Assembly: GCA_964563815.1 (NCBI GenBank)
Contig: CAZLYD010000001.1
Location: 15,757 to 79,756, forward strand
DNA: 64,000 bases
From: an uncultured Spirochaetaceae bacterium
GTDB lineage: Bacteria > Spirochaetota > Spirochaetia > Sphaerochaetales > Sphaerochaetaceae
Direction of reading: 5' to 3'
The notes below the pieces were generated by a model. The model was given only the letters and a program-made list of their open reading frames with translations. It ran no database searches and was not told the DNA's origin. Position 1 is the first letter of the stretch; the number at the start of each line of letters is the position of its first letter. Below, piece by piece: positions 1 through 10,778 of the stretch. The translations under genes and the position numbers were made by a program.

Positions 1-590
1 ACCATATAAGAAGAACATGCCATACCAAGGAAAGAGAAAAGCATTGGTTGAATACCTATAAAATATCCAGAGGAACAGACAACTAAGGCATTACAGCAAA
101 AAGAGACAGAGCCAACTGCTATTGGAGTATAATGGGCAACAGCTTGAGCAACAATATCTGTTCCACCTGTATTACAGCCTGCCTTCATTGTTATTCCAAT
201 ACCAGATCCCAGTAGTACTCCTCCAAAAATTGCTGATAAAAGTATATTCACACCATCGCTTACATCTAGTATCCCACTGTACCCTGTAATGTTACCTAAA
301 ACAGAAATCCACAAAGACAACAAAGATGAACCTAAAAGTGTCTTAATACCATACTTAAAGCCAAAGACACACATACCAACAATGATTAATGGTATGTTTA
401 TCAAAAGGCTTGTTAAACCTAAATCGAATCCAAATAGATTGTAGAGAATGTTAGCAATACCAGATGCCCCACCACTTGTTATTTTGGCTGGAGTATAAAA
501 AATTGTAATTCCGAAGGCTGCGATAAAAGGACCTAAAAGTAAATAAATAACATCTCTATTATTATGCGGGAGGTATTTAGATTTATTCAT
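1..590 (-). CDS. YitT-family (DUF161/UPF0750-like) integral membrane protein, C-terminus cut by window edge
   Basis: Not in the ORF track because there is no stop in the window. My translation of the minus strand from ATG 590-588 stays open to nt 1: MNKSKYLPHNNRDVIYLLLGPFIAAFGITIFYTPAKITSGGASGIANILYN...KAGCNTGGTDIVAQAVAHY. It is hydrophobic, and the GGASG and TGGTD motifs are typical of YitT proteins. Confidence 0.7.
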   Translation of the reverse strand, partial: MNKSKYLPHNNRDVIYLLLGPFIAAFGITIFYTPAKITSGGASGIANILYNLFGFDLGLTSLLINIPLIIVGMCVFGFKYGIKTLLGSSLLSLWISVLGNITGYSGILDVSDGVNILLSAIFGGVLLGSGIGITMKAGCNTGGTDIVAQAVAHYTPIAVGSVSFCCNALVVCSSGYFIGIQPMLFSFLGMACSSYM

Positions 591-714
591 ATTTAGCATG
601 ATACATGGATTTTACTATATTTAATAGCAGAAATAAAAAATAAGTAAAACTATCTTATGCATTGTTTTCTGCATCCAAAAAATAGATAAAATCTGTGAAC
701 TCAGAAACTCTCTT

Positions 715-1875
715 TTAGGCCTCATCACTAGTATGTGTATAGTGATTATTTATCTCTTTGCTTCTATGACCCAAAACAAGCATTCTATCCTCTTGCGAGA
801 GGCTAAAATCTCTACCTAGAGTAGAGAAGGTATGACGAAGAGAATGATAAGTTATGTTTCGTTTCCTTCTTATATCTTCCGTTATTCCAATTAGTGACAA
901 TAGATAATAAAAGCTATTGCGAATTGTTGGTGAAGATATATACTCTTTGCAGCTGCAGGAAGAAGGAAAAATTATTCCTTCTTCATTAGCATTATTAATT
1001 AAAGCCTTAGCTAAAGAATCACAGATCAAAATTGACCGCCCATATTTTCCTTTAGTTTCCTTTAGCCCACTTATATATCCAATAGAGTGAATGATATTAA
1101 TCCGGAAGAAACCTTTAACACTACACGTCTCTATATTCTCCTTTCTTAGTGCCCTAACTTCAGCTATTCTCATACCAGTCACTAGAGAAAGTAGAATAGC
1201 AAGATATTGTGTTTTACCAATACTCTCTTTATGTATTTCAAGAGCTCTTCTTAGCTTAATAACTTCATCTAGTGTAAGTATTCCTCTCTCTTTTGCCTTA
1301 TCTTTTGCAACGAGTAGCTTAGTAGAAGGATTACTGCTTATTAGTCCAATTCTATATGCCTCCTTGAGTGGTATCGAAAAAGAATAGATGATTATAGCTA
1401 TTGTTGTATTCTCCTTCTTTGTTTTATATAGTTCTTTTGCAATTCTATCTAATACAGTTATCGTAACACAGCTAAGCCTTAATCCCTCCGGAATAAGTGG
1501 TTTTACATTCTTCTGAAAGTTCTTTCTCATGTTATAAGCATATTCACGTCCAATAGAATTCTTCTTTAGCCTATTACGTAAAGATATATACTCTGAGTTA
1601 TCATAATCCCAAAATTCTTCACAATAAGAAGAAAACAACATATCTTTCTTTTTAGAAAAAACAATTCCATCCTCTATTGCTTTATTAGCAATAATAGCCG
1701 CTTCCTCTCGTCTTGTAACACTTTTAAAATCAAGAAGACCGAGTCTCTCCTTTAAGCAATCTATACTCTTAGCAGTCATTTGCTTACCTGTCTCTCTATC
1801 TAAAAAACAAACATACCAATAATCACCCATTTTCATGTGTCTTTTATACAAATAGAAATCTCTTCGATGTGCCAT
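715..1875 (-). CDS. tyrosine site-specific recombinase (phage-integrase family), copy 1, stand-alone
   Basis: 386-aa ORF. Catalytic signature: TGMRIAE (Arg), HSLRHTF (His-x-x-Arg), LGHRS, and Tyr in NHYTH. AAGGAG Shine-Dalgarno lies 6 nt upstream of the ATG. The N-terminal ~55 aa are nearly identical to the ORF at 7576-8781. Confidence 0.9.
   Translation of the reverse strand: MAHRRDFYLYKRHMKMGDYWYVCFLDRETGKQMTAKSIDCLKERLGLLDFKSVTRREEAAIIANKAIEDGIVFSKKKDMLFSSYCEEFWDYDNSEYISLRNRLKKNSIGREYAYNMRKNFQKNVKPLIPEGLRLSCVTITVLDRIAKELYKTKKENTTIAIIIYSFSIPLKEAYRIGLISSNPSTKLLVAKDKAKERGILTLDEVIKLRRALEIHKESIGKTQYLAILLSLVTGMRIAEVRALRKENIETCSVKGFFRINIIHSIGYISGLKETKGKYGRSILICDSLAKALINNANEEGIIFPSSCSCKEYISSPTIRNSFYYLLSLIGITEDIRRKRNITYHSLRHTFSTLGRDFSLSQEDRMLVLGHRSKEINNHYTHTSDEA
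1757..1821. repeat. 65-nt perfect direct repeat, copy A (inside the 5' coding part of recombinase 1)
   Basis: Hand alignment: caatctatactcttagcagtcatttgcttacctgtctctctatctaaaaaacaaacataccaata is identical at 8663-8727. The flanks drop to about 80-90% identity. Confidence 0.9.
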
Positions 1876-1909
1876 TTTTTCTCCTTATTTTTCTGCATTC
1901 TTATATTCA

Positions 1910-1943
1910 CTATGAGTAGAATATCTGAACAAAAGACTCATAG
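1910..1943. promoter_or_regulatory. inverted repeat CTATGAGT-N18-ACTCATAG in the recombinase-1 / paralog-A divergent spacer
   Basis: 8-bp perfect arms read directly from the sequence. A TTTTTCTGCA motif lies 13 nt upstream (1888-1897) and recurs at 8816-8825. Function unknown. Confidence 0.3.
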
Positions 1944-1976
1944 AATACGTTAGATGCGGAATTGAGAAAAATATAA

Positions 1977-2049
1977 CAATTGAGGAAATAATGAAAAAAA
2001 TTCTTTCTATCGTATTAATTGCAGCTCTTGCTCTTACATCAGCTTTCGC
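1977..2049 (+). repeat. conserved 5' block (RBS plus signal-peptide coding) of surface-protein paralog A
   Basis: caattgaggaaataATGaaaaaaattctttc...cttacatcagctttcgc. By hand count it is about 90% identical (7 mismatches in 73) to the reverse complement of 4722-4794, and about 82% identical to 8872-8944. Confidence 0.8.
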
Positions 2050-3349
2050 TGGTATCGAAGGTTCTGCAGTAGTTGGTCTCGGATATAACTTCGAGGACAA
2101 ATCATTTGGATTCAATAATTCAACAACAACCAAGGTTACTTACGAGCTTACGTCAGAAGAAGTAGAGATGGCTGGTGAAGGTTCTGTATTTGCAGGAATT
2201 AAAGGATCTTTTACTCTTTCAACAAAAGATTATACTGCTAATGAAGCTGGTGCTCCAACTTGGTCAATTACTCCAGCAGTTGATGAAGCATATATCAAAG
2301 GGGAAGATTGGACAGTAAGCATTCTTGGAGCAGATGACGGTCAAGATTTTGCAACATCTGCACTAGATAAAGTATCTCTAGATGGAGCTTTAATTGCAAC
2401 AACAGTTGCTGTTGATGCTGTAGCTGCACCCGGCGTCAAGGTTACTTATAAAGATTGGACAGTATCTGGGGGATTTGCCACTGGAGCAATAACAACACCA
2501 ACACCAGCAACATATGCATATCGCTACTATGTTGAAGGTGAAAGTGATTTAAAGTATTATGAAGGAACTGAAGCTGGATTTGCTACTTTAGTTGATGAAA
2601 AGGATTATGCTATTGTAAGTAAGTTTGAAGTAGAAGAAGCAACTTCTGTTAAAGAAAACTATCTTGATTATAGCTTCACATTAGCAACTCCAGAACTTGT
2701 TTTCGGAGATGCAAAGGTTGCTCTTGGTGTAGCAGTTGCAGACACTAATACAGAAACAGCTAAAAAGAGTGGTGCTAACCTTGGCGTATCTGCAAAGGCA
2801 TCTTATGAAAACGAACAGCTCAGCGCATCTGTTGCAAGTGATGTTGTTTTTGCTAATGTAGGTACTGAATTAAAGGTTGATGCTGACGTTGCAGCTAAAT
2901 TCTCTTATGCTCCAGTAACTGATGATGCTTATTATGCAACAGAAGCAAAGACACAGAATGTTCTTGAACCAAATAAGTCTAAATCAAACGCAACTGTAAA
3001 GAACCTTCTTTCTGCAAAGGTAGCATTTGATCTTTCATCATTTGAGCTTCCAGTAAAGGTTGCTGTAAGTTGCAGAGATATTCTCGGTGCAAAGGTTTTA
3101 GGAGCTACTGCTTCTACAACTCTTGATGCTCTTACACTTAGTGCTAATGCTGATTATGCTGTTGTCGCTAAATCTTATATTGTTGGTGCATCCGCTGAAT
3201 ATAAGTTTGAGGCATTCACTCTTAAGGCTGGTTTAACATACAGATCTGAAAAGGTTCTTTATGCTAATGCTTCTATCGAGTCAAGTATCTTGTTCCTGGT
3301 GCAACACTTTCTCTTGCATATGGTCCTAACACTAAAGATGGCAAAGTAA
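1991..3349 (+). CDS. surface / putative outer-membrane beta-barrel protein, paralog A (3' end frameshifted, see 3268-3411)
   Basis: 452-aa ORF. Signal peptide MKKILSIVLIAALALTSAFAG, GAGGA RBS, and Ala/Val/Thr/Asp-rich alternating pattern. The N-terminus GLGYNFEDKSFGFNN is shared with the ORFs at 3554-4780 and 8886-10655. The last ~20 aa (ILFLVQHFLLHMVLTLKMAK) look like out-of-frame translation. Confidence 0.75.
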   Translation: MKKILSIVLIAALALTSAFAGIEGSAVVGLGYNFEDKSFGFNNSTTTKVTYELTSEEVEMAGEGSVFAGIKGSFTLSTKDYTANEAGAPTWSITPAVDEAYIKGEDWTVSILGADDGQDFATSALDKVSLDGALIATTVAVDAVAAPGVKVTYKDWTVSGGFATGAITTPTPATYAYRYYVEGESDLKYYEGTEAGFATLVDEKDYAIVSKFEVEEATSVKENYLDYSFTLATPELVFGDAKVALGVAVADTNTETAKKSGANLGVSAKASYENEQLSASVASDVVFANVGTELKVDADVAAKFSYAPVTDDAYYATEAKTQNVLEPNKSKSNATVKNLLSAKVAFDLSSFELPVKVAVSCRDILGAKVLGATASTTLDALTLSANADYAVVAKSYIVGASAEYKFEAFTLKAGLTYRSEKVLYANASIESSILFLVQHFLLHMVLTLKMAK

Positions 3350-3411
3350 CAACTAACCTACTTAATGGAAAGTATGGCTCTGTTAATGCTAAGGCTACAA
3401 TTAAATTCTAA
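3268..3411 (+). pseudogene. out-of-frame 3' continuation of paralog A encoding the family's conserved C-terminus
   Basis: The frame ending at TAA 3409-3411 reads ...LVPGATLSLAYGPNTKDGKVTTNLLNGKYGSVNAKATIKF*. This matches the ATLSL...aromatic C-termini of the other two paralogs. That frame is open only from 3268, so a 1-nt shift must lie near 3281-3294. Confidence 0.7.
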
Positions 3412-3431
3412 TTATTAAGAATTATAGCAGA

Positions 3432-3466
3432 AAGGCATCACCGAATGGTGGTGCCTTCTTATTTAT
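3432..3466 (+). terminator. Rho-independent terminator candidate downstream of paralog A
   Basis: aaggcatcacc-gaat-ggtggtgcctt gives an 11-bp stem (one G-U pair) followed by cttatttatt. Confidence 0.6.
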
Positions 3467-3494
3467 TCACTCAAAAAAAAACGAGTTAACGCTT

Positions 3495-3530
3495 AAAATA
3501 AAAAATGCCCCGAATAAATCGAGGCATTTT
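3495..3530 (-). terminator. Rho-independent terminator downstream of paralog B
   Basis: Minus strand reads aaaatgcctcg-atttatt-cggggcatttt followed by ttatttt. The stem is 11 bp with one G-U pair. Confidence 0.65.
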
Positions 3531-3553
3531 TAAAGCTTTTCAATAATAATCTA

Positions 3554-4780
3554 TTATTTGAAAGAAACCTTAGCAGCTGCTGTGATAGCACCATTCTTCT
3601 TTGCAGAACCAGCGAATTCAGCGCCTGTCCAGCCGAGAGAAAGAGTTGCATTGTCAACAAGCTTATCAGAAGAAACTGTGAGAGATGGCTTGATTGATGT
3701 GAATTCGAAGCTATCAGCAAAAGAAGCCTTGAGAGCAACCTTAGCTTCTGCCTTGAAGAGGTCAGCTGTGTATGTAACTGTTGTTGTTGAAGCAGCAGCC
3801 TTATCAAATACTGAGTAAGAAGCTGTTTCCTTAACCTTGAGAGCGTCAACTGCAACTTCAGCTGTAGCACCAACATCGAGAGATCTAGCATCAGCAAGAA
3901 CGTTTCTTGTTTCAACAAATGCAGAAACCTCAACATCTTCGATTGTCTTTGAAGCATAAAGAAGAGCATCGAGGTTGTTTGTTGTGAAACCATCTTCTGT
4001 ATAGAAGTAAACGTTAGCAGAAACGAAATCGTAAGCAGCGTTGAGAGCAGCTTCAAGAGCAACAACGTCAGCAACGTTTAAGTCAGCAGCAACATCAGCT
4101 GAGAAGAGGTCTTTAGCATAAGAAGCCTTGCCGTTAACAGCAAACTTAGCGCCATCCTGGTTAGCGATAACAGCAGCACCAGCAGCAACCTTTACGCCTT
4201 CAGCAACTTCTGTTTCACTGAGAGCAACATGAGCAAGAAGAGCGAATGTCTTTGCTTCTGCATTACCCATAAGACCGAAACCGCCATTAGCAACATCTGC
4301 CTTAACTGTGAAACCAGGAACACCCTTGAGACCTGTAACAACATCAGAATCTGGATCGCCATCTTCGTCATCATCATAGTAAGAAGCAGCGTAGTTAGCA
4401 CTTGTACCAGCACTGAGAAGACCGAATGTTACCATATCTTTGTAAACGATGTCAGCCTTAGTAATCTTAAGCTTAGAAACCTTAAGGTCAGCTACATCAA
4501 CTGCGCCTGGAGCTGAGAACTTCTTAGCAGCGATTTCTGCCTTGAATTCAGCAGCGATAACAGCCTTTAAGTCGCCTTCGCCTTCGCTACCAGCCTTAGC
4601 TGAATCTAATTCGAAACCCCATTTAGCTTCAACTTTTGAACCGTTTGTGAAGCCATAATCTGTTGAGTCGAGATCATAACCTAAAGAAAGAGTTGCATCT
4701 CCCTTAAATCCTGATACAGCTGCGAATGCAGATGTAAGAACAAGAGCTGCAATTAATGCGATTGAAAGAATCTTTTTCAT
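3554..4780 (-). CDS. surface / putative outer-membrane beta-barrel protein, paralog B (likely the expressed major copy)
   Basis: The ORF track starts at 4816. I prefer ATG 4780 (MKKILSIALIAALVLTSAFAA...), which is preceded by GGAGGAAATA. 408 aa. C-terminus ...NATLSLGWTGAEFAGSAKKNGAITAAAKVSFK. A consensus promoter lies upstream and a terminator downstream. Confidence 0.85.
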   Translation of the reverse strand: MKKILSIALIAALVLTSAFAAVSGFKGDATLSLGYDLDSTDYGFTNGSKVEAKWGFELDSAKAGSEGEGDLKAVIAAEFKAEIAAKKFSAPGAVDVADLKVSKLKITKADIVYKDMVTFGLLSAGTSANYAASYYDDDEDGDPDSDVVTGLKGVPGFTVKADVANGGFGLMGNAEAKTFALLAHVALSETEVAEGVKVAAGAAVIANQDGAKFAVNGKASYAKDLFSADVAADLNVADVVALEAALNAAYDFVSANVYFYTEDGFTTNNLDALLYASKTIEDVEVSAFVETRNVLADARSLDVGATAEVAVDALKVKETASYSVFDKAAASTTTVTYTADLFKAEAKVALKASFADSFEFTSIKPSLTVSSDKLVDNATLSLGWTGAEFAGSAKKNGAITAAAKVSFK

Positions 4781-4794
4781 TATTTCCTCCATTG
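4722..4794 (-). repeat. conserved 5' block of paralog B, inverted relative to the block at 1977-2049
   Basis: Reverse complement reads caatggaggaaataATGaaaaagattctttcaatcgcattaattgcagctcttgttcttacatctgcattcgc. Confidence 0.8.
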
Positions 4795-4853
4795 AAAATT
4801 CGGGGACACGCCTCAAGACATGCCTTTCCCTTTATTCCGTTATACATTTTTGA

Positions 4854-4882
4854 ATTGTACCTAACGATACATTACCTGTCAA
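4854..4882 (-). promoter_or_regulatory. sigma70-type promoter for paralog B
   Basis: Minus strand reads TTGACA-ggtaatgtatcgttagg(17 nt)-TACAAT. This implies a 5' UTR of about 65 nt before ATG 4780. Confidence 0.6.
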
Positions 4883-5033
4883 GATAAATAAAAATGTCAT
4901 ATTAAAGGTTACACTTTTTAATAGAAATTTTTTGTTTTCATATATTTATTATATATATTTCTGCCTTATTTCCCAATTTAATGCTTTTTTGATTATGTAT
5001 ATATATGCATTTTTATTGTATTTTTACTAATTA

Positions 5034-5810
5034 TTATTCATCTTTATAAGGAACATTAGGTGGGATTTCAAACCTTTTTTCCCTTTTCTTCCTCTTTATT
5101 GACTCTTCTTTTATTACTCTTAATTTAATATTTCTTCGTTCAACAAGAATTCTTTCGCTTCTGTCTTTTTCAATATAAAGGACAAGAAAGACAAGTAAGA
5201 ATAAAAATGATGGATTTATTATTTTTCCATTCTCCTTTTCTGCTAGGTAAGAAAAGAAAGAAGAGAAAAGAATAAAAATATAAGAAAACCAATTCTTTTT
5301 TGTTCCAAAAAGAAGAAAGGAAATAATAGCAAGAGCTAAAAAAAGAAAAGAGAAATAGAAAAATCTTTCGTAACTATCAATATTGATTGTTTCTCTATAT
5401 AGATAAACATATGAATTAAGGTATCTTTTTATAGCCATTAAGAAGAGTGTTAGCACTACTAGAGCATAAAAGAGTCTTCCTTTTCTCTTTTGGACAATAA
5501 GCGGAAGAAAAAGTAGAAGGAAGAGTGAATTTGATAATGCACAAACACCTATTTCTCTTATTGGTGCTTTATCTACAAAAAGGGATGAAAGTATGAAATA
5601 TATAAAAGAAAGAAAAATAGAAAATAAAGCTAATATAAAAAATGTTCTATCTTTATTTTTTAAATAAGCGGAAGAAAAAGCTAACAAAACTATTTCAAAA
5701 GCTGCAAAAAGAAAGATAATGGGCTCAAAAGAGAGAAAAAGAAAAAAGAGAGCACCCACTAATAATATAAGAAAAGAGAAAATAGTTACCACTATATTAT
5801 TTTTCTCCAT
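5034..5810 (-). CDS. polytopic membrane protein of unknown function with a Lys/Arg-rich C-terminal tail
   Basis: 258-aa ORF with multiple hydrophobic segments (Phe/Leu/Ile-rich). It overlaps the recX stop by 14 nt. I recognise no motif. Confidence 0.6.
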   Translation of the reverse strand: MEKNNIVVTIFSFLILLVGALFFLFLSFEPIIFLFAAFEIVLLAFSSAYLKNKDRTFFILALFSIFLSFIYFILSSLFVDKAPIREIGVCALSNSLFLLLFLPLIVQKRKGRLFYALVVLTLFLMAIKRYLNSYVYLYRETINIDSYERFFYFSFLFLALAIISFLLFGTKKNWFSYIFILFSSFFSYLAEKENGKIINPSFLFLLVFLVLYIEKDRSERILVERRNIKLRVIKEESIKRKKREKRFEIPPNVPYKDE

Positions 5811-6240
5811 CGCTAAACCTCTCTATCGCCTCTCTTATTTCATAAGAAGAGAAGCCCTTACTTCTCATTTTTATTGTTGCTTTCTCTTCTCCACTTTCTT
5901 CTTTAATGCTATTCCACTTTTTAAATAATGGCTCCAGATATTCTTCATTTTCCCAATACTCTTTTATTATTGGCTCTGCCACTTCTCTCTTGACACCCTT
6001 TTCACTAAGACGAGAAAGAAGTATCGTCCTTCCTTCTACATTCTTTCTTAAGCGAGAAGAAACAAAGGATCTAACAAATCTTTCTTCACTGAGGTAGTTT
6101 TCCTCCTCTAATAAGGAAAGTGCATTCTCTATTTCATTCTTATTAAAACCACGCTCTACAAGCTTTGCTTCTAGCTCTTTATAGCTATGCTCTCTGAGTG
6201 TAAGTAATTTTAATGCTTTGTCGTAAGCGGATTTTTTCAT
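5797..6240 (-). CDS. recX: RecX-family regulatory protein
   Basis: 147 aa. The sequence AYDKALKLLTLREHSYKELEAKLVERGF..EIENALSLLEEENYLSEERF follows the repeated helical pattern typical of RecX. Confidence 0.75.
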   Translation of the reverse strand: MKKSAYDKALKLLTLREHSYKELEAKLVERGFNKNEIENALSLLEEENYLSEERFVRSFVSSRLRKNVEGRTILLSRLSEKGVKREVAEPIIKEYWENEEYLEPLFKKWNSIKEESGEEKATIKMRSKGFSSYEIREAIERFSDGEK

Positions 6241-6261
6241 ATCTAGAATAATAACATAGTG

Positions 6262-6291
6262 AAAAAAGAAAAGACCAGTAAAACTGGTCTT
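6262..6291 (-). terminator. Rho-independent terminator after rpsI
   Basis: Minus strand reads aagaccagt-ttt-actggtctt followed by ttcttttttc. Confidence 0.7.
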
Positions 6292-6310
6292 CTCTTTGAA
6301 AATATAATGC

Positions 6311-6721
6311 TTAACGCTTTGAGAACTGGAATCTTCTTCTTGCTCCGCGCTGACCGTACTTTTTTCTTTCGACCATTCTTGGGTCTCTTGTCATAAGTCC
6401 AGCTGTATGGAGAGCAGGCTTGAGAAGCTCATCATAATCAACAAGAGCTCTTGCAACACCATGTCTTACAGCTTCAGCCTGGCCATGGATACCACCACCA
6501 CAAACGTTAACAACAAGATTGAACTTGCCACTTGTTTCTGTAACATTAAATGGTTCATAAACCTTAGCCTGATCTGTTTCACTTACGAAATACTCATCAA
6601 TTTTCTTTCCGTTAATAACAACGTCACCATTGCCTTCTCTAAGGTAAACTCTAGCAATAGCGGTCTTTCTTCTGCCAACTCCGTGTCCGAGGTCAACAAC
6701 TTTGTTTTCATTCTTAGCCAT
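6311..6721 (-). CDS. rpsI: 30S ribosomal protein S9
   Basis: 136 aa, with GGGIHGQAEAVRHGVARAL and C-terminal RDPRMVERKKYGQRGARRRFQFSKR. Confidence 0.97.
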   Translation of the reverse strand: MAKNENKVVDLGHGVGRRKTAIARVYLREGNGDVVINGKKIDEYFVSETDQAKVYEPFNVTETSGKFNLVVNVCGGGIHGQAEAVRHGVARALVDYDELLKPALHTAGLMTRDPRMVERKKYGQRGARRRFQFSKR

Positions 6722-6736
6722 TCTGCGTTACCTCTC

Positions 6737-7165
6737 TTAAAGCTCAACTTTTTCTGGCTTCTGAGCCATATGTGGGTGCTCAGCACCAGCATAAACATGT
6801 AAATTGACGAAAAGTCTCTTTCCTAGCTTGCCGGAAGGAAGCATACCCTTAACTGCATGTTCCATTGGATAAGTAGGCTTTCTGACAATCATCTTACCAT
6901 AGTTCTCAGCTTTAAGTCCGCCTGGGAACATAGAGTGACGATAATACATCTTGTCTTCAACTTTATTGCCGGTGACATTAGCCTTGGCTGCGTTAATGAT
7001 AATGACATAGTCCCCCATATCCTGGTGAGGAACATACTCTGGTTTATTCTTACCACGGAGAATTCTTGCTGCAACAACTGCAACTCTTCCGAGGTTTTTA
7101 CCTTCAGCATCGATTAAGTACCATTTTTTCTCCATCGTTGCTGGTTTAACAAAAATAGTCTTCAT
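6737..7165 (-). CDS. rplM: 50S ribosomal protein L13
   Basis: 142 aa, starting MKTIFVKPATMEKKWYLIDAEGKNLGRVA..RGKNKPEY and lying immediately upstream of rpsI. Confidence 0.97.
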   Translation of the reverse strand: MKTIFVKPATMEKKWYLIDAEGKNLGRVAVVAARILRGKNKPEYVPHQDMGDYVIIINAAKANVTGNKVEDKMYYRHSMFPGGLKAENYGKMIVRKPTYPMEHAVKGMLPSGKLGKRLFVNLHVYAGAEHPHMAQKPEKVEL

Positions 7166-7190
7166 AACTACATCCTGTTTTTTTCTTACC

Positions 7191-7240
7191 TAGAAAACAC
7201 CGTTTTCTACCTTTAAGGCACCTAGACCGGCTATGGTCTA
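7191..7240 (-). promoter_or_regulatory. two stem-loops in the rplM 5' leader (candidate r-protein autoregulatory leader)
   Basis: The stems are tagaaaac-acc-gttttcta (7191-7209) and tagacc-ggctat-ggtcta (7223-7240). Both lie within 75 nt upstream of the rplM ATG. Confidence 0.3.
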
Positions 7241-7575
7241 CCAGAAAGTACATTCTCTTTGCTTCTCTATTAAGATGGTCGCTCTATCTTAATAACAAAG
7301 AAAAATATATTTCATTCATGCTTCAAGTTCACCGATTCAAAAGAAAAGCAATTTTGACGCCCTCTGGGAAAGGAAATAGCGGAAAAGCTCCAGCATCAAG
7401 CTATCTTCTCTTTTAAATATCTTAAAGCAAGGTAAGAAAAAAAGAGAAAGAGAAGATTGTGGATTCTCTTCTTTCACATTTATTTCCTACTCGGCTGGTG
7501 GGTTCACATGCTTACACATGCTCTGTTATCATACTCGCTTTTATCTTTTCTTGTCCATACCTAGAGAAAGAAAAA

Positions 7576-8781
7576 TCAAAAGAGCGTAAAGAGTTGCTTG
7601 ATAAGAAGAGTAGCTCTGTAGACTGCTTCATCAGATGTGTGAGTATACCTCTCGTTTACCTTTTGAGACTGATGTCCCATTATTAACATCCTATCTTCTT
7701 GTGTAACAGAATAGTCCAAGCATATTGTTGAAAACGTATGACGAAGAGAATGAAAAGAGAGCTTTCTTTTTCTTCTTTCCTCTTCGCTAATGCCAATAGA
7801 AGAAAGAAGCGAGTAGAAAACATGACGAAATGTCGGTGGCGATATATATTCCTTTTTTTTAAACGGAGACGGAAGTAAAAGCCCAGAAGGAGAAGCATTA
7901 TTTATTAACTCTTTCGCAAGATGGGAAGGAATTAAACAAAAGCGCTCATATCCACTTTTAGTTGATTTAATACCACTTAGATATGCAAGTGAGTGTCTAA
8001 TTACAATTTTTTTATAATCAGGATGCTCGCTATCAAGAATATCTTCAACTCTAAGTGACCTTATTTCTGCACTTCTCATTCCTGTAATGAGAGCTAAAGT
8101 TATTCCATAGTAATAAGATGGAAAGATCTTATTTTTCACTTCCTTTAATTTTTTAATGAGTTTTTCCACTTCTATTTTTGTTAGAACTCCTCGTCTCTCC
8201 TCTTCTCTAGAAACCTTTAAAAGATTATCACATGGATTAGTGTCAATAAGACCTTCTCTTTTGGCTTCCTTTAATGGAAGCGTAAACGAAGAGATAAGGA
8301 TACATATTGTTGAAGGCGAAAGATTCTTTTTATATAACTCTCTAATTATTTTATCCAAATCAGATGTTTTTACATCCTTTATATCGAGATTCTCAGGGAG
8401 AAGCGGAAGAATATTCTTTTTGAAGTTTTTTTCCATATTATATGCATATTCTTTACCAATTGAGCCTTTCTTAATGCTATTACGAAGGCCAATATACTCG
8501 CTTTTCTCCCAAGACCAAAAATCAAGGCAGTAAGACGCAAATGTTTTTGTTTTTTTCTTTAAGTCTATGATTTTCCTATCTAATGCTTTTTGTGCAATAA
8601 GTAAAGCTTCTTCTCTTTCTACAACACTTTTAAAATCAAGTATCCCGAGCCTCTCTTTTAAACAATCTATACTCTTAGCAGTCATTTGCTTACCTGTCTC
8701 TCTATCTAAAAAACAAACATACCAATAGTCACCACCCTTCTTGTGTCTTTTATATAAATAAAACTCTTTTCTATGAGCCAT
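7576..8781 (-). CDS. tyrosine site-specific recombinase (phage-integrase family), copy 2, stand-alone
   Basis: The ORF track starts at 8784 (MMAHRK). I prefer the second ATG at 8781, which has better spacing from AGGAGG and matches the copy-1 N-terminus MAHR. Motifs: TGMRSAE, HSLRHTF, MGHQS, and Tyr in ERYTH. Confidence 0.9.
   Translation of the reverse strand: MAHRKEFYLYKRHKKGGDYWYVCFLDRETGKQMTAKSIDCLKERLGILDFKSVVEREEALLIAQKALDRKIIDLKKKTKTFASYCLDFWSWEKSEYIGLRNSIKKGSIGKEYAYNMEKNFKKNILPLLPENLDIKDVKTSDLDKIIRELYKKNLSPSTICILISSFTLPLKEAKREGLIDTNPCDNLLKVSREEERRGVLTKIEVEKLIKKLKEVKNKIFPSYYYGITLALITGMRSAEIRSLRVEDILDSEHPDYKKIVIRHSLAYLSGIKSTKSGYERFCLIPSHLAKELINNASPSGLLLPSPFKKKEYISPPTFRHVFYSLLSSIGISEEERRKRKLSFHSLRHTFSTICLDYSVTQEDRMLIMGHQSQKVNERYTHTSDEAVYRATLLIKQLFTLF
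8663..8727. repeat. 65-nt perfect direct repeat, copy B (inside the 5' coding part of recombinase 2)
   Basis: Identical to 1757-1821 by hand alignment. Confidence 0.9.
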
Positions 8782-8796
8782 CATTACCTCCTATAG

Positions 8797-8832
8797 TGGA
8801 AAGTAAAAATTGTTCTTTTTCTGCACTTTCCA
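8797..8832. promoter_or_regulatory. inverted repeat TGGAAAGT-N20-ACTTTCCA in the recombinase-2 / paralog-C divergent spacer
   Basis: 8-bp perfect arms. The loop contains TTTTTCTGCA (8816-8825), which is also present at 1888-1897. Confidence 0.3.
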
Positions 8833-8871
8833 TAAATTTCATCCCCCCATACCCCGTTCAAATAATATATT

Positions 8872-8944
8872 TAATTGAGGAAACAATGAAAAAGTTCATT
8901 ACTTTCACATTAATTGCAGCGCTTGCTCTTACATCAGCCTTTGC
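8872..8944 (+). repeat. conserved 5' block of paralog C
   Basis: taattgaggaaacaATGaaaaagttcatt...attaattgcagcgcttgctcttacatcagcctttgc. It shares 17-nt and 12-nt perfect runs with 1977-2049. Confidence 0.7.
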
Positions 8945-10655
8945 TGGTATTACAGGAAATGCAAGCTTTGCAGCAAATTATGACCTAAATGAGAGTGTCT
9001 TTACTTTAGATAACTCAAAATTAGGAACAAGTACACTCAAGGTTGATCTTGAAGGTTCTTCTGCTGGTACAGAAGCGCCCGAAAGTGGTATCTATGCAGA
9101 TTTCAAAGGTTCTCTTGAAGCTAACCTTACAGAGGAAGGTGTAGATCTTAAGTCTGAACTCACTGAAGCAGTCATTAAAGATGCAAATGGTGTATGGAGT
9201 GTTGATTTAACAAAGGTTTCTAATGGTGTTGAGGTAACACTCTTAGACTATGTTTTAGATGCCAATTACAAAGATAATCTTAACTGGGGAATAGGTGTAA
9301 AGACTCCTTCTTATACAATTGTTGATGGCCTTACATTAAGTGCAAATGCTACTTACACAGTTGCAGAATTAGATAAGGCTGATCCTGCTAACTATGATAA
9401 GGCATTTGGTAAAAACTCAGAGGGCTATTCTTGGGATGATGTTCACGCTACATACTTTGCAACATATGACAATGGAACATACAAGAATGCAGATCTCAAA
9501 GCTGCTCAAGATAAGGTAAGTGCAGCAAAGGATGCTCTTAGTGAAGCAAAAGCAGCTTTCGCTTTAGATCCTAGCGAAGAAAACTTTGATGCTATTACTA
9601 AAAAAGAAGAGGCATTAAAGGATGCAGAGGATAATCTTAAGAAGGCAGAAGAAGCTGTTGAAAAAGAGTTTAAAAAAGCTAATCCAGAATGGTATCAAGA
9701 AAAAGTCAAATATTCATATTCTGAAAAGTGGTCAACAAGTACTGAAGCTAAAACTTTAAAAGTAAATGAAAAAGAAATATGGCATAGTGAAGAAACTACA
9801 GAAGCTGACAAAAATTACGTTGTCGTACAAAATGCTTCAGGTGCTTATAGCGTTAAAGAACAACTAGACCCATCTGTATTATCTGATACAGCTTCAAAAG
9901 TTGTTTATACATTCACAGCTAAAGCTAATACTACACATGTATACTTAATTAGATCATTGGATGAAACTACTACATATGATGAAATCAAATCTTTCGGAGC
10001 AAAAGATCCTAATTTTGGAACAAGAACACTTAATGGTGGACTTACACTTAATTATGCTAACGATGCCCTATCTGCTACTTTAAAAGGTAATGTTAAGTAT
10101 GAATTAAATTCAAAAGGCTTTGGTTTCGACGTTACAGCCAATGCTAAATATGCTTTTGTTAGTGGTGAAGTTTCTTTCGAAAGAACACTCGACAAAGAAA
10201 ATGTTCTTGGAGCTAGTGCTTCAGCAACATACAGTGGTGTAACAGCAACTATTACAGGAACAGACCTTCTTGCAAATAAGAATGAAAGAAAGCTCGCTCT
10301 TGATCTTTCTGCAACAGTCATGGGTGTTTCAGCTAAGCTTGGTGCAGAATATAACTTCTCTAACAATTTCCATGAAACTGGCGTAGCACCTCTATCACTA
10401 AATGCTGAAATGGCTTATGCATTTGATGATATTTCAGTTAAGGCTAGTGTCACAGGAAAGAGTGAATATAACTTCAATAGTAATGGTGACTACGAAAAAG
10501 CTGCTGTTGCAGTTAGCCCAGCACTTACACTTGAAAACAGCACACTTATCCAGAATGCAACGCTCTCTCTTAGCTGGTCTGGTGCAAAGTTCGGTGGAAA
10601 GATTGATACTCAGAGTAAGGGTGCTCTTCAAGCAAAAGCTGCAATTGCATTCTAA
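8886..10655 (+). CDS. surface / putative outer-membrane beta-barrel protein, paralog C, with a large central insert including a Lys/Glu/Ala-rich helical segment
   Basis: The ORF track starts at GTG 8796. I prefer ATG 8886 (MKKFITFTLIAALALTSAFAG), preceded by GAGGAAAC. 589 aa. C-terminus ...NATLSLSWSGAKFGGKIDTQSKGALQAKAAIAF. A terminator follows. Confidence 0.85.
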   Translation: MKKFITFTLIAALALTSAFAGITGNASFAANYDLNESVFTLDNSKLGTSTLKVDLEGSSAGTEAPESGIYADFKGSLEANLTEEGVDLKSELTEAVIKDANGVWSVDLTKVSNGVEVTLLDYVLDANYKDNLNWGIGVKTPSYTIVDGLTLSANATYTVAELDKADPANYDKAFGKNSEGYSWDDVHATYFATYDNGTYKNADLKAAQDKVSAAKDALSEAKAAFALDPSEENFDAITKKEEALKDAEDNLKKAEEAVEKEFKKANPEWYQEKVKYSYSEKWSTSTEAKTLKVNEKEIWHSEETTEADKNYVVVQNASGAYSVKEQLDPSVLSDTASKVVYTFTAKANTTHVYLIRSLDETTTYDEIKSFGAKDPNFGTRTLNGGLTLNYANDALSATLKGNVKYELNSKGFGFDVTANAKYAFVSGEVSFERTLDKENVLGASASATYSGVTATITGTDLLANKNERKLALDLSATVMGVSAKLGAEYNFSNNFHETGVAPLSLNAEMAYAFDDISVKASVTGKSEYNFNSNGDYEKAAVAVSPALTLENSTLIQNATLSLSWSGAKFGGKIDTQSKGALQAKAAIAF

Positions 10656-10677
10656 GAGAAAACTTAAAATAATTTAT

Positions 10678-10709
10678 CCTGTACCTTTAAAAAAGGTGCA
10701 GGTTTTTTT
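10678..10709 (+). terminator. Rho-independent terminator after paralog C
   Basis: cctgtacctt-taaaa-aaggtgcagg followed by a T7 tract. Confidence 0.75.
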
Positions 10710-10727
10710 ATTGATTGTTTTTGAATT

Positions 10728-10751
10728 AAAAAATGTATCCCACTGGGATAC
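10728..10751 (-). terminator. Rho-independent terminator after the helicase gene
   Basis: Minus strand reads gtatccc-agt-gggatac followed by atttttt. Confidence 0.55.
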
Positions 10752-10778
10752 ACTCAAATTAAACTGACTAGATATATA

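Follow-up and report, generated by a model that had tools for sequence, protein, structure and literature searches.

What do two tyrosine recombinase genes do when each stands back to back with an outer-membrane protein gene in a spirochete chromosome? The question arises from a 64,000-nucleotide (nt) stretch of an uncultured Spirochaetaceae bacterium (GCA_964563815.1, contig CAZLYD010000001.1, positions 15,757-79,756; the whole stretch is hereafter the window). Here, the recombinase genes R1 (715-1875, minus strand) and R2 (7576-8781, minus strand) are divergent from the porin-like paralogs A (1991-3349, plus strand) and C (8886-10655, plus strand), respectively, across intergenic regions of 104-115 nt, and the two pairs flank rplM-rpsI on both sides. 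A third paralog, B (3554-4780, minus strand), lies tail to tail with A. The open reading frame (ORF) coordinates and orientations of these five genes, including the convergence of A and B, are as a first-pass annotation of the sequence had placed them; that annotation went on to suggest a recombinase-associated switching or cassette system for surface proteins. We conclude that each pair represents a single copy of a two-gene module specific to the lineage, recombinase plus divergent porin-like paralog, and that in Ornithospirochaeta-like Sphaerochaetaceae the recombinase gene has a fixed place in the chromosome, is under purifying selection, and borders a variable paralog island on one side. 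R2+C is an intact extra copy of the module between uvrD and the rplM leader, and R1+A appears to be decaying. As to what the enzyme does, we tentatively favor, with rather less than even confidence, a recombinase of the integrase type that has been domesticated and remodels the island of paralogs from time to time.

Is the pairing more than an accident of gene order in one strain? We compared the window with related stretches (labeled L001, L002, and so on); a scan with one genome per species gave 80 loci. A divergent paralog lies directly upstream of the recombinase in about 27 of some 41 informative, nonredundant loci and in at least four different flanking contexts, among them beside opp genes (L040 and L042) and between eno and nagB (L044-L046 and L056), which bears out the earlier view that the architecture is beyond coincidence. 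The gene order rimO-uvrD-rplM-rpsI-recX-membrane protein-(paralogs)-recombinase-YitT recurs in L002, L014, and L016, and a YitT-family gene follows the recombinase in about 30 loci; any genes found between the two are ordinary metabolic ones (nagB, uxuA, a GntR regulator, and uxuB). The window has the same neighbor on the 3' side of R1, a partial YitT-family membrane protein gene (1-599, minus strand) that runs past the window start and matches the gene directly downstream of the recombinase in those loci; its orthologs in L002 and L098 belong to Pfam YitT_membrane. In one subclade, an aldolase-like gene stands between recombinase and paralog, or the paralog is missing. The neighbors of R1 and R2 are ordinary chromosomal genes, with no phage, conjugation, or transposon cargo and no transfer RNA (tRNA) beside them, as first annotated, and no tRNA or transfer-messenger RNA (tmRNA) gene was detected anywhere within the window. 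A prophage or an integrative and conjugative element, whether intact or in the decayed form that had been named as a threat to the switching idea, was rejected on the core-gene neighbors and on a scan of viral contigs that gave only three distant matches, at 23-28% identity.

How did the window come to have two pairs? R2 and C form a 3.2-kb two-gene insertion between uvrD and the rplM leader, which is absent from the uvrD-rplM gap of L002, L014, L016, L090, and L092; the sister lineage L098-L100 has it, arranged identically. Set against the empty site, its boundaries are the uvrD stop codon and the R2 stop codon. The left-hand boundary, beside the uvrD stop codon, falls in the segment (10656-10778) that holds the terminators of C (10678-10702, plus strand) and uvrD (10755-10731, minus strand), and the right-hand boundary is at the rplM leader (7166-7575, minus strand). 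No direct repeats flank R2+C, the only short matches being at chance level. The copying of the recombinase-paralog pair as a two-gene unit is supported, and R2+C displays the presence/absence polymorphism, with an integrase gene at its boundary, that characterizes an island.

The paralog islands of relatives are much larger (L002, 11887-18905; L090/L091; L092, 4221-21257; L010, 3877-4746). Scattered among their paralogs are AAA_14/DUF4143 ATPase and HTH-Fic genes, a RelB/PIN toxin-antitoxin pair, and insertion sequence (IS) elements, and these islands resemble a defense or variation hot spot; none of this cargo occurs in the window. In one subclade (L038, 1945-2020; L039, 1950-2026; L037; L044; L046; and L056), the recombinase is followed 45-900 nt downstream by a tRNA-Arg(CCT) gene that has the same orientation. 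The 5' end of this tRNA gene faces the recombinase, where the usual integrase layout has the tRNA 3' end adjacent.

The signs of decay in R1+A are two lesions. The present R1 ORF (715-1875, 386 amino acids [aa]) has lost its C-terminal tail to a TTA-to-TAA nonsense codon at 715-717, which removes the last 20 residues; the ancestral ORF (655-1875) was about 20 codons longer, R1 of the sister lineage (L098) has 406 aa, and the 60 nt past the nonsense codon in the window are still in frame. In A, a 1-nt deletion near 3287 shifts the frame: the ORF as read ends at 3349, and the real C terminus (ATLSLAYGP...KATIKF) lies in another frame that ends at 3411, leaving the terminal beta-strand cut off. 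The ATLSL motif and terminal aromatic strand that the first-pass annotation took the paralogs to share are therefore present in A, but outside its ORF of 1991-3349. Near-identical strains (L001, L083, L088, and L089) have an intact A of 473-474 aa, L084 has the same 452-aa allele as the window, and in the sister lineage both R1 and A are intact. The R1-A pair of this strain is thus damaged in both its genes. R2 (401 aa) is intact.

What kind of enzyme is encoded? R1 and R2 align gaplessly over 386 aa at 58% identity (E 1e-159), and both match PF00589 (Phage_integrase; cut-off 27.1 bits), R1 with 51.9 bits (E 1e-13) and R2 with 62.9 bits (E 4e-17). Residues R236, K272/K275, H344, R347, H370, and Y379 (in the numbering of R2) do not vary among the 20 family members compared, so that the R, K, H-x-x-R, H, and Y of tyrosine recombinases are all kept. 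The family is narrow, with about 90 clusters at 42-61% identity, followed by a sharp fall to about 30%. The predicted model of R2 (mean predicted local distance difference test [pLDDT] score 82) comprises an N-terminal beta-hairpin (residues 7-25) with a helix, a helical core-binding domain, and a catalytic domain. Its best Foldseek matches are full-length lambda Int chains, N-terminal domain included, over 386-407 columns; Tn1549 Int comes next, and XerH, IntI, and Cre rank below. Judged by this model, the recombinase is a three-domain, lambda-Int-type enzyme with a predicted arm-type N-terminal domain, and these matches indicate an integrase-type enzyme rather than a small invertase. On the choice between Xer and arm-type clades that the annotation had left to be checked, the model points to the arm type. 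The annotation's notion of a switching enzyme is not borne out by the enzyme type, which appears to be an arm-binding integrase and no simple invertase. An integron was also rejected: TIGR02249 scores 24.7 bits against a cut-off of 265, and the genes of the locus have their own terminators and stand in both orientations.

R1 and R2 have also exchanged sequence. In codons 21-40 (1756-1815 in R1 and 8662-8721 in R2, minus strand), 19 of 20 codons are identical, compared with about 40-50% of same-residue codons elsewhere in the genes and between species. Near-identity restricted to these codons, and absent between species, points to an intragenomic gene-conversion tract, and the idea of a cis element in the recombinase 5' coding region was rejected accordingly. 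Because of this shared tract, every Logan contig of the species that reaches codon 28-30 of either recombinase gene breaks there; an exact repeat that exceeds the assembler k-mer (k = 31, we assume) explains such breaks, and we set contig ends aside as evidence of heterogeneity. Contigs of metagenome-assembled genomes (MAGs) that end within the signal-peptide block were set aside likewise, since repeats can explain them.

What do the paralogs encode, and how are they expressed? A, B, and C are about 30% identical overall, with a signal peptide and first mature segment in common, as had been noticed at first reading. None matched a Pfam or NCBIfam family, and exact-protein look-ups of A and C returned no record. 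B (408 aa) is conserved: its orthologs have a steady length of 402-405 aa at about 54% identity, and its homologs come from Spirochaetales and Candidatus Ornithospirochaeta MAGs. The AlphaFold model of B, for which 30 homologs were used, is an all-beta structure of more than 20 antiparallel strands, with pLDDT 70-87 over residues 150-370, and its best matches in the PDB are general porins, Campylobacter jejuni MOMP, and VDAC, at low template-modeling scores of 0.3-0.4. The paralog C termini read ...VSFK, ...IAF, and ...IKF. On the strength of the model, which answers the call for a beta-barrel check, porin-like outer-membrane beta-barrel proteins is a fair description of the family. C (589 aa) has a long insert that is predicted to be exposed, and L098-L100 have the same gene in the same position. 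Each of A, B, and C has a ribosome-binding site (RBS), an ATG, a signal peptide, and its own terminator, those of A (3432-3457, plus strand) and B (3531-3501, minus strand) being intrinsic terminators that stand back to back (3432-3531).

A strong promoter (11/12) was called for B and none for A or C. This B-type expression site (4781-4882, minus strand) consists of a sigma-70-like promoter (TTGACA, 17 nt, TACAAT at 4882-4854) and a conserved 5' untranslated region (UTR), CCCGAATTTTCAATGGAGGAAATA, which is kept in L002, L014, L016, L033, L045, and L046; in L016 and L092 the site is joined to a different body type. Across distant species, the site has the form TTGACA, 17 nt, TA(C/G)AAT followed by the 5' UTR ...CCCGAATTTT(C)A(A)TGGAGGAA, with copies in the window (4781-4882), L045 (~700-816), and L046 (~5230-5341) and various paralog body types attached.

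Where do the paralogs recombine? The clearest traces are at their 5' ends. The RBS/signal-peptide block of A (1977-2049, plus strand) forms a 73-nt inverted repeat with that of B (4722-4794) at 90% identity, with a longest identical run of 17 nt, and a direct repeat at 80% with 8873-8963 in the block of C (8867-8963, plus strand). Within single genomes (L010, L040, L045, L056, and L016), paralogs whose identity is otherwise near random have exactly the same sequence between about -10 and about +60 to +95 relative to the start codon. The block is identical within genomes and different between them, which indicates concerted evolution; the paralog 3' ends are not homogenized, which argues against two-flank cassette conversion. 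Between L002 and L090, which are 96-97% identical, homology stops exactly at -13 of a paralog start codon. When mature regions are clustered, one body type appears at B-type, recombinase-adjacent, or internal sites, depending on the genome; the pairing of body with expression site has thus been reshuffled, and the junction lies in the 5' block. Where L003 and L004 have a paralog beside the recombinase, L017 has none and carries instead an orphan RBS, ATG, and 23-codon signal-peptide block on the recombinase strand, the 3' end of which is fused directly to the repeat upstream of the recombinase gene (...GCTGGTCTTACAGA/CTGAGAGTGCAGAAATAAGTGCAG, the slash marking the junction). This orphan block (1373-1495 of L017), with a Fic-like gene upstream and no paralog body, is the only one of its kind in about 90 loci. 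Dyad symmetry around paralog start codons was not conserved when four genomes were compared by eye. Taken together, these comparisons support the paralog 5' block as a recombination hot spot.

Does the recombinase have a site of its own? The repeat found at the L017 junction is a tandem one that reads, in recombinase orientation, (A/G)GTGCAGA-N5-GTGCAGAAA, with two half-sites 12 bp apart. A 5' copy lies directly upstream of the recombinase RBS in many loci, and a 3' copy lies in the same orientation at or shortly before the recombinase stop codon. When 33 related recombinase genes were scanned with a position weight matrix (PWM), 30 proved to have the 3' copy, a count that takes in six copies lying 60-100 nt before the mechanical ORF end, and the upstream copy was present in 15 of 32; clear 5' copies at the position equivalent to R1-A occur in L003, L005-L007, L012, L014, L016, and L017. 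Only 7 other strong matches were found in 0.79 Mb, five of them upstream of paralog genes. Three lie 57-81 nt upstream of paralogs that do not adjoin the recombinase (L032, L035, and L019), and the other two, in L045 and L046, are inverted and stand immediately past the eno terminator, where the whole array ends on its far side. A weaker copy occurs in L029, again upstream of a paralog that does not adjoin the recombinase. In the window, the 3' copy beside R1 (653-677, minus strand; GGATGCAGAAAACAATGCATAAGA; PWM score 14.7) falls within the ancestral last codons of the gene, and a degenerate 5' copy (1889-1913, minus strand; PWM score 10.0) lies in the R1-A intergenic region directly upstream of the R1 RBS. 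A half-degenerate 5' copy beside R2 (8812-8832, minus strand; AAAGTGCAGAAAAAGAACAAT), read by eye, is below the PWM threshold. The window variants are ATGCAGA/ATGCATA. The statement that there are no obvious att repeats thus needs qualifying: a conserved tandem repeat flanks the genes of this recombinase family, but the window copies are degenerate, and R2+C has no flanking direct repeats.

The repeat changes with the enzyme. In Sphaerochaeta homologs that are 30% identical to the recombinase, a different repeat occupies the same place, TTGAACAA in two to three copies or, in one subclade, TTGAGCA. These repeats (L050-L081; e.g., L053 at ~70-150 and L057 at ~9900-9985) lie directly upstream of the RBS, and the TTGAGCA version is that of L067, L069, L071, and L077. 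Covariation of repeat and enzyme clade is the main reason to take the repeats as candidates for the recombinase's own binding sites, whether arm-type or operator. A sigma-54-like reading (CTGCAC, 6 nt, CTGCAC as against TGGCAC, 5 nt, TTGCA) is unlikely, as the invariant GG is absent and the best copy sits at the gene 3' end. No inverted half-site was enriched next to the tandem repeat as a core site, and no heterobivalent integrase core site duplicated as attL/attR was found around R2+C or beside the repeat.

Could the enzyme have become a mere regulator, binding DNA at its own gene and the adjacent paralog without catalysis? The repeats do lie between the likely promoter and the RBS of the recombinase gene in both clades, and the copies 57-81 nt upstream of some paralog start codons would suit such a role. 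A pure regulator, however, would not need the catalytic residues, all of which are invariant, and the best-conserved copy, at the gene 3' end, is no place for a promoter operator; we regard this possibility as very improbable. Hardly credible is a single Xer-like enzyme comparable to XerH or XerS, with a dif site next to its gene at which it would resolve chromosome dimers. The conserved chromosomal position, the cis element beside the gene, and the presence of XerH among the structural matches are what such an enzyme would lead one to expect. Against it, NCBIfam Xer models score 18-49 bits where their cut-offs are 220-335, there is no sign change of guanine-cytosine skew at the locus in the window or in 16 related loci, two copies lie only 7 kb apart, the N-terminal arm-type domain is predicted to be present, and the repeats are direct, with no dif-like palindrome. 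Xer/dif was rejected on the model scores and the skew.

Is the locus a fast reversible switch? A shufflon or antigenic switch in which the recombinase inverts the DNA between inverted 5' blocks, such as those of A and B, and so changes the expressed paralog would account for several features: A and B converge, with the 73-nt inverted repeat at their 5' ends; only B has a called promoter; and the convergent layout beside the recombinase recurs in L014, L016, L040, L045, L046, and L056. It would also have a precedent in Bacteroides thetaiotaomicron, where BT1041 acts on susC-like 5' ends (10.1101/521070). The population data point the other way. One order and orientation is found in about 12 independent assemblies, from this species (L001 and L083-L089) and from the 89%-identical sister lineage (L098-L102), these being short-read consensus assemblies from which minor isoforms could escape, and several contigs span both the A and the B block unbroken. 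Seven A-versus-B differences within the block are never mixed in any strain, across the 89%-identical lineage as well. There are no 5'-truncated silent paralog copies and no single expression site, since A, B, and C all have complete 5' ends. The direct repeats of A and C enclose the essential rplM-rpsI, so that recombination between these two blocks would be lethal, and the enzyme is of the integrase type. We therefore consider a fast switch quite improbable. An invertible promoter of the fimS type or of the kind seen in Bacteroides invertons, which would call for inverted repeats around some 150-350 bp of promoter DNA beside the recombinase gene, was rejected as well: in intergenic regions of 104-115 nt, no inverted repeat consistently flanks a promoter, the only one present being a 15-nt pair, 58 nt apart, in R1-A that is absent from R2-C. 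Of the proposed switching or cassette system, then, the conserved association, the copying of two genes together, the 5'-end hot spot, and the absence of a prophage or integrative and conjugative element hold up; the expected structural heterogeneity, silent copies, and a promoter-flanking inverted repeat do not. Among the hallmarks of a shufflon, the locus has the inverted common 5' segment beside a dedicated recombinase and lacks silent copies, and these assemblies show no coexisting arrangements.

Might the recombinase instead be a passenger, the relic integrase of an old integrative island or of a recombinase-plus-paralog mini-element, tied to the paralogs by nothing more than co-inheritance and co-transfer, while RecA-dependent recombination and diversifying selection on their own diversify the paralogs and homogenize and reshuffle the 5' block? 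Much fits this somewhat unlikely alternative. The fold is lambda-Int-like, with candidate arm sites at the gene 3' end as in lambda; R2+C is a clean insertion/deletion bounded directly by R2; and in L045 and L046 the whole array and recombinase are bracketed by inverted repeat copies. The islands of relatives contain toxin-antitoxin, Fic, DUF4143 ATPase, and IS genes, and more distant relatives (L075 and L076) have classic integrases beside a tRNA gene. The R1/R2 gene-conversion tract, the invariant arrangement in this species, and the lesions of R1 and A in this strain all agree with it too. A relic would be expected to decay, yet the gene is intact, with invariant catalytic residues, and syntenic across genomes whose recombinases are 40-60% identical. 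Neither flanking direct repeats nor a tRNA target nor an excisionase gene was found, and there are no close relatives on viral contigs. Two further points count against a relic: the repeat also occurs upstream of paralogs that do not adjoin the recombinase, and the L017 junction joins the signal-peptide block to the repeat.

The domesticated, occasionally remodeling recombinase that we favor would work as follows. The N-terminal arm-type domain would bind the 12-bp-phased tandem repeats, which bracket the recombinase gene and are also found upstream of some paralog genes. Such binding would autoregulate the recombinase and position the enzyme, which might then catalyze occasional site-specific insertions, deletions, and inversions with junctions at the RBS/signal-peptide block or next to the repeat. 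The outcome would be a slow remodeling, on the scale of strains and species, of body-promoter pairing and paralog number, and no fast ON/OFF switch. A more ambitious version, which we think unlikely, is programmed porin-cassette exchange: an arm-binding recombinase with tandem GTGCAGA arm sites and a core at the RBS/signal-peptide block or the signal-peptide cleavage region would insert, delete, and invert cassettes. The same version would make the system an intermediate between integron and shufflon that copies itself as a recombinase-plus-porin unit.

Several observations weigh against a remodeling role. Binding, cleavage, and rearrangement by the recombinase are activities that we infer. 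The homogenized 5' tracts are of variable length and look RecA-type, so the 5'-block data do not need the recombinase, and R1 and R2 themselves share a RecA-like conversion tract. The L017 junction is a single case, and neither the 5' block nor the sequence beside the tandem repeat yielded a core-type inverted repeat. The degeneracy of the window's repeat copies, the absence of any 3' copy at R2 in the PWM scan, the single arrangement across assemblies, and the never-mixed block differences count on the same side. So does the gene's occurrence on its own: L036 and L048 keep the recombinase without an adjacent paralog, and the 30%-identity homologs follow smpB with no paralog nearby. (No tmRNA gene lies between smpB and the Sphaerochaeta homologs; it is found 2-9 kb away.) The first-pass annotation had counted paralogs without adjacent recombinases in relatives against its proposal, and this is partly what we see, in that B-type paralogs never adjoin a recombinase and some relatives have the recombinase without a neighboring paralog.

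Between the two modules lie core genes (5034-7165, minus strand): a membrane protein gene (5034-5810), recX (5797-6240), rpsI (6311-6721), and rplM (6737-7165). Upstream of rplM-rpsI is a conserved noncoding element of about 370 nt, within 7166-7575, that has its own sigma-70-like promoter at 7557-7528. RNAalifold on six species predicted 98 pairs, 51 of them with compensatory changes, and the element had no Rfam match at the gathering score or at E <= 1 and contained no tmRNA. It is a candidate for a novel structured leader or small RNA of the L13-S9 operon, as judged from the predicted fold. Many short contigs with the spirochete locus (L003-L009, L016, L017, and L024) are filed in the MAGs of other bacteria (Eggerthellaceae, Ruminococcus, Comamonas, Lachnospiraceae, Faecalibacterium, Muribaculaceae, and Flexilinea); they are probably mis-binned, repeat-bounded contigs.

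What would a remodeling recombinase mean? Sphaerochaetaceae, including Ornithospirochaeta, are common in bird, ruminant, and human guts, and our literature search turned up nothing published on the surface proteins or recombinases of this lineage. Should the enzyme indeed remodel the array of porin genes, recombinase-linked outer-membrane variation, so far a matter of Bacteroides and Mycoplasma, would reach the spirochetes, and an arm-binding integrase would have become a host-domesticated remodeler of a gene array, with a bearing on phage-receptor evasion and integrase domestication. Concrete candidate sites are at hand in the tandem repeat and the 5' block, and reads from samples with this strain are public (SRR22923253, SRR22923255, SRR22923216, SRR21733471, and SRR36265364). 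If the enzyme is only a relic integrase, the finding is an ordinary one, and the clear concerted evolution of the signal-peptide block remains.

How does the locus compare with known systems? In Mycoplasma, the vsa/HvsR, vsp, and vpma/Xer1 systems comprise lipoprotein genes, a single promoter-bearing expression site, and short recombination sites (vrs, vis, and RS), and their inversions are frequent and readily seen between clones. The spirochete locus resembles them in having a dedicated tyrosine recombinase beside surface paralogs with a conserved 5' region and signal peptide; the single expression site, defined short sites, and frequent inversions are known from the Mycoplasma systems. The sap system of Campylobacter fetus is RecA dependent, draws on some 600 bp of homology, and works by inverting a segment that carries the promoter. 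It too has surface paralogs whose conserved 5' ends serve as recombination substrates, with bodies swapped relative to the promoter, whereas the spirochete block is only 60-100 nt long and has a recombinase gene adjacent. Lambda Int and the Tn916/Tn1549 integrases have the three-domain fold predicted here. The P' arm sites of lambda abut the 3' end of int, much as short tandem repeats lie at the 3' end of the spirochete recombinase gene, and R2, like such integrases, is at the very edge of an inserted segment. Unlike them, the spirochete locus has no phage or conjugative cargo, excisionase gene, tRNA target, or att direct repeats, and its recombinase gene is syntenic and vertically inherited across genera.

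The closest parallels are in Bacteroides. Some B. thetaiotaomicron loci combine a recombinase with S-layer lipoprotein and OmpA-like genes and have an invertible 301-bp promoter between 17-nt imperfect palindromes (10.1101/521070). The spirochete intergenic regions, at 104-115 nt and with no consistent flanking inverted repeat, are unlike these, but in both cases genes for surface or outer-membrane proteins have the recombinase gene immediately upstream, and the layout recurs within one genome. In the BT1032-BT1053 shufflon, to which B. fragilis SusC/SusD shufflons are related, the tyrosine recombinase BT1041 recombines susC-like 5' ends; two of the three genes are 5'-truncated, there is a single expression site, all recombined states are detectable by polymerase chain reaction, a recombinase mutant is locked in one state, and the suggested purpose is surface-receptor variation under phage pressure (10.1101/521070). 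The spirochete paralogs differ in having full 5' ends, no alternative state seen, a recombinase with a predicted arm-type domain, and an unrelated protein family. What the two systems have in common is a recombinase gene inside a cluster of paralogous outer-membrane beta-barrel genes and recombination at their 5' ends.

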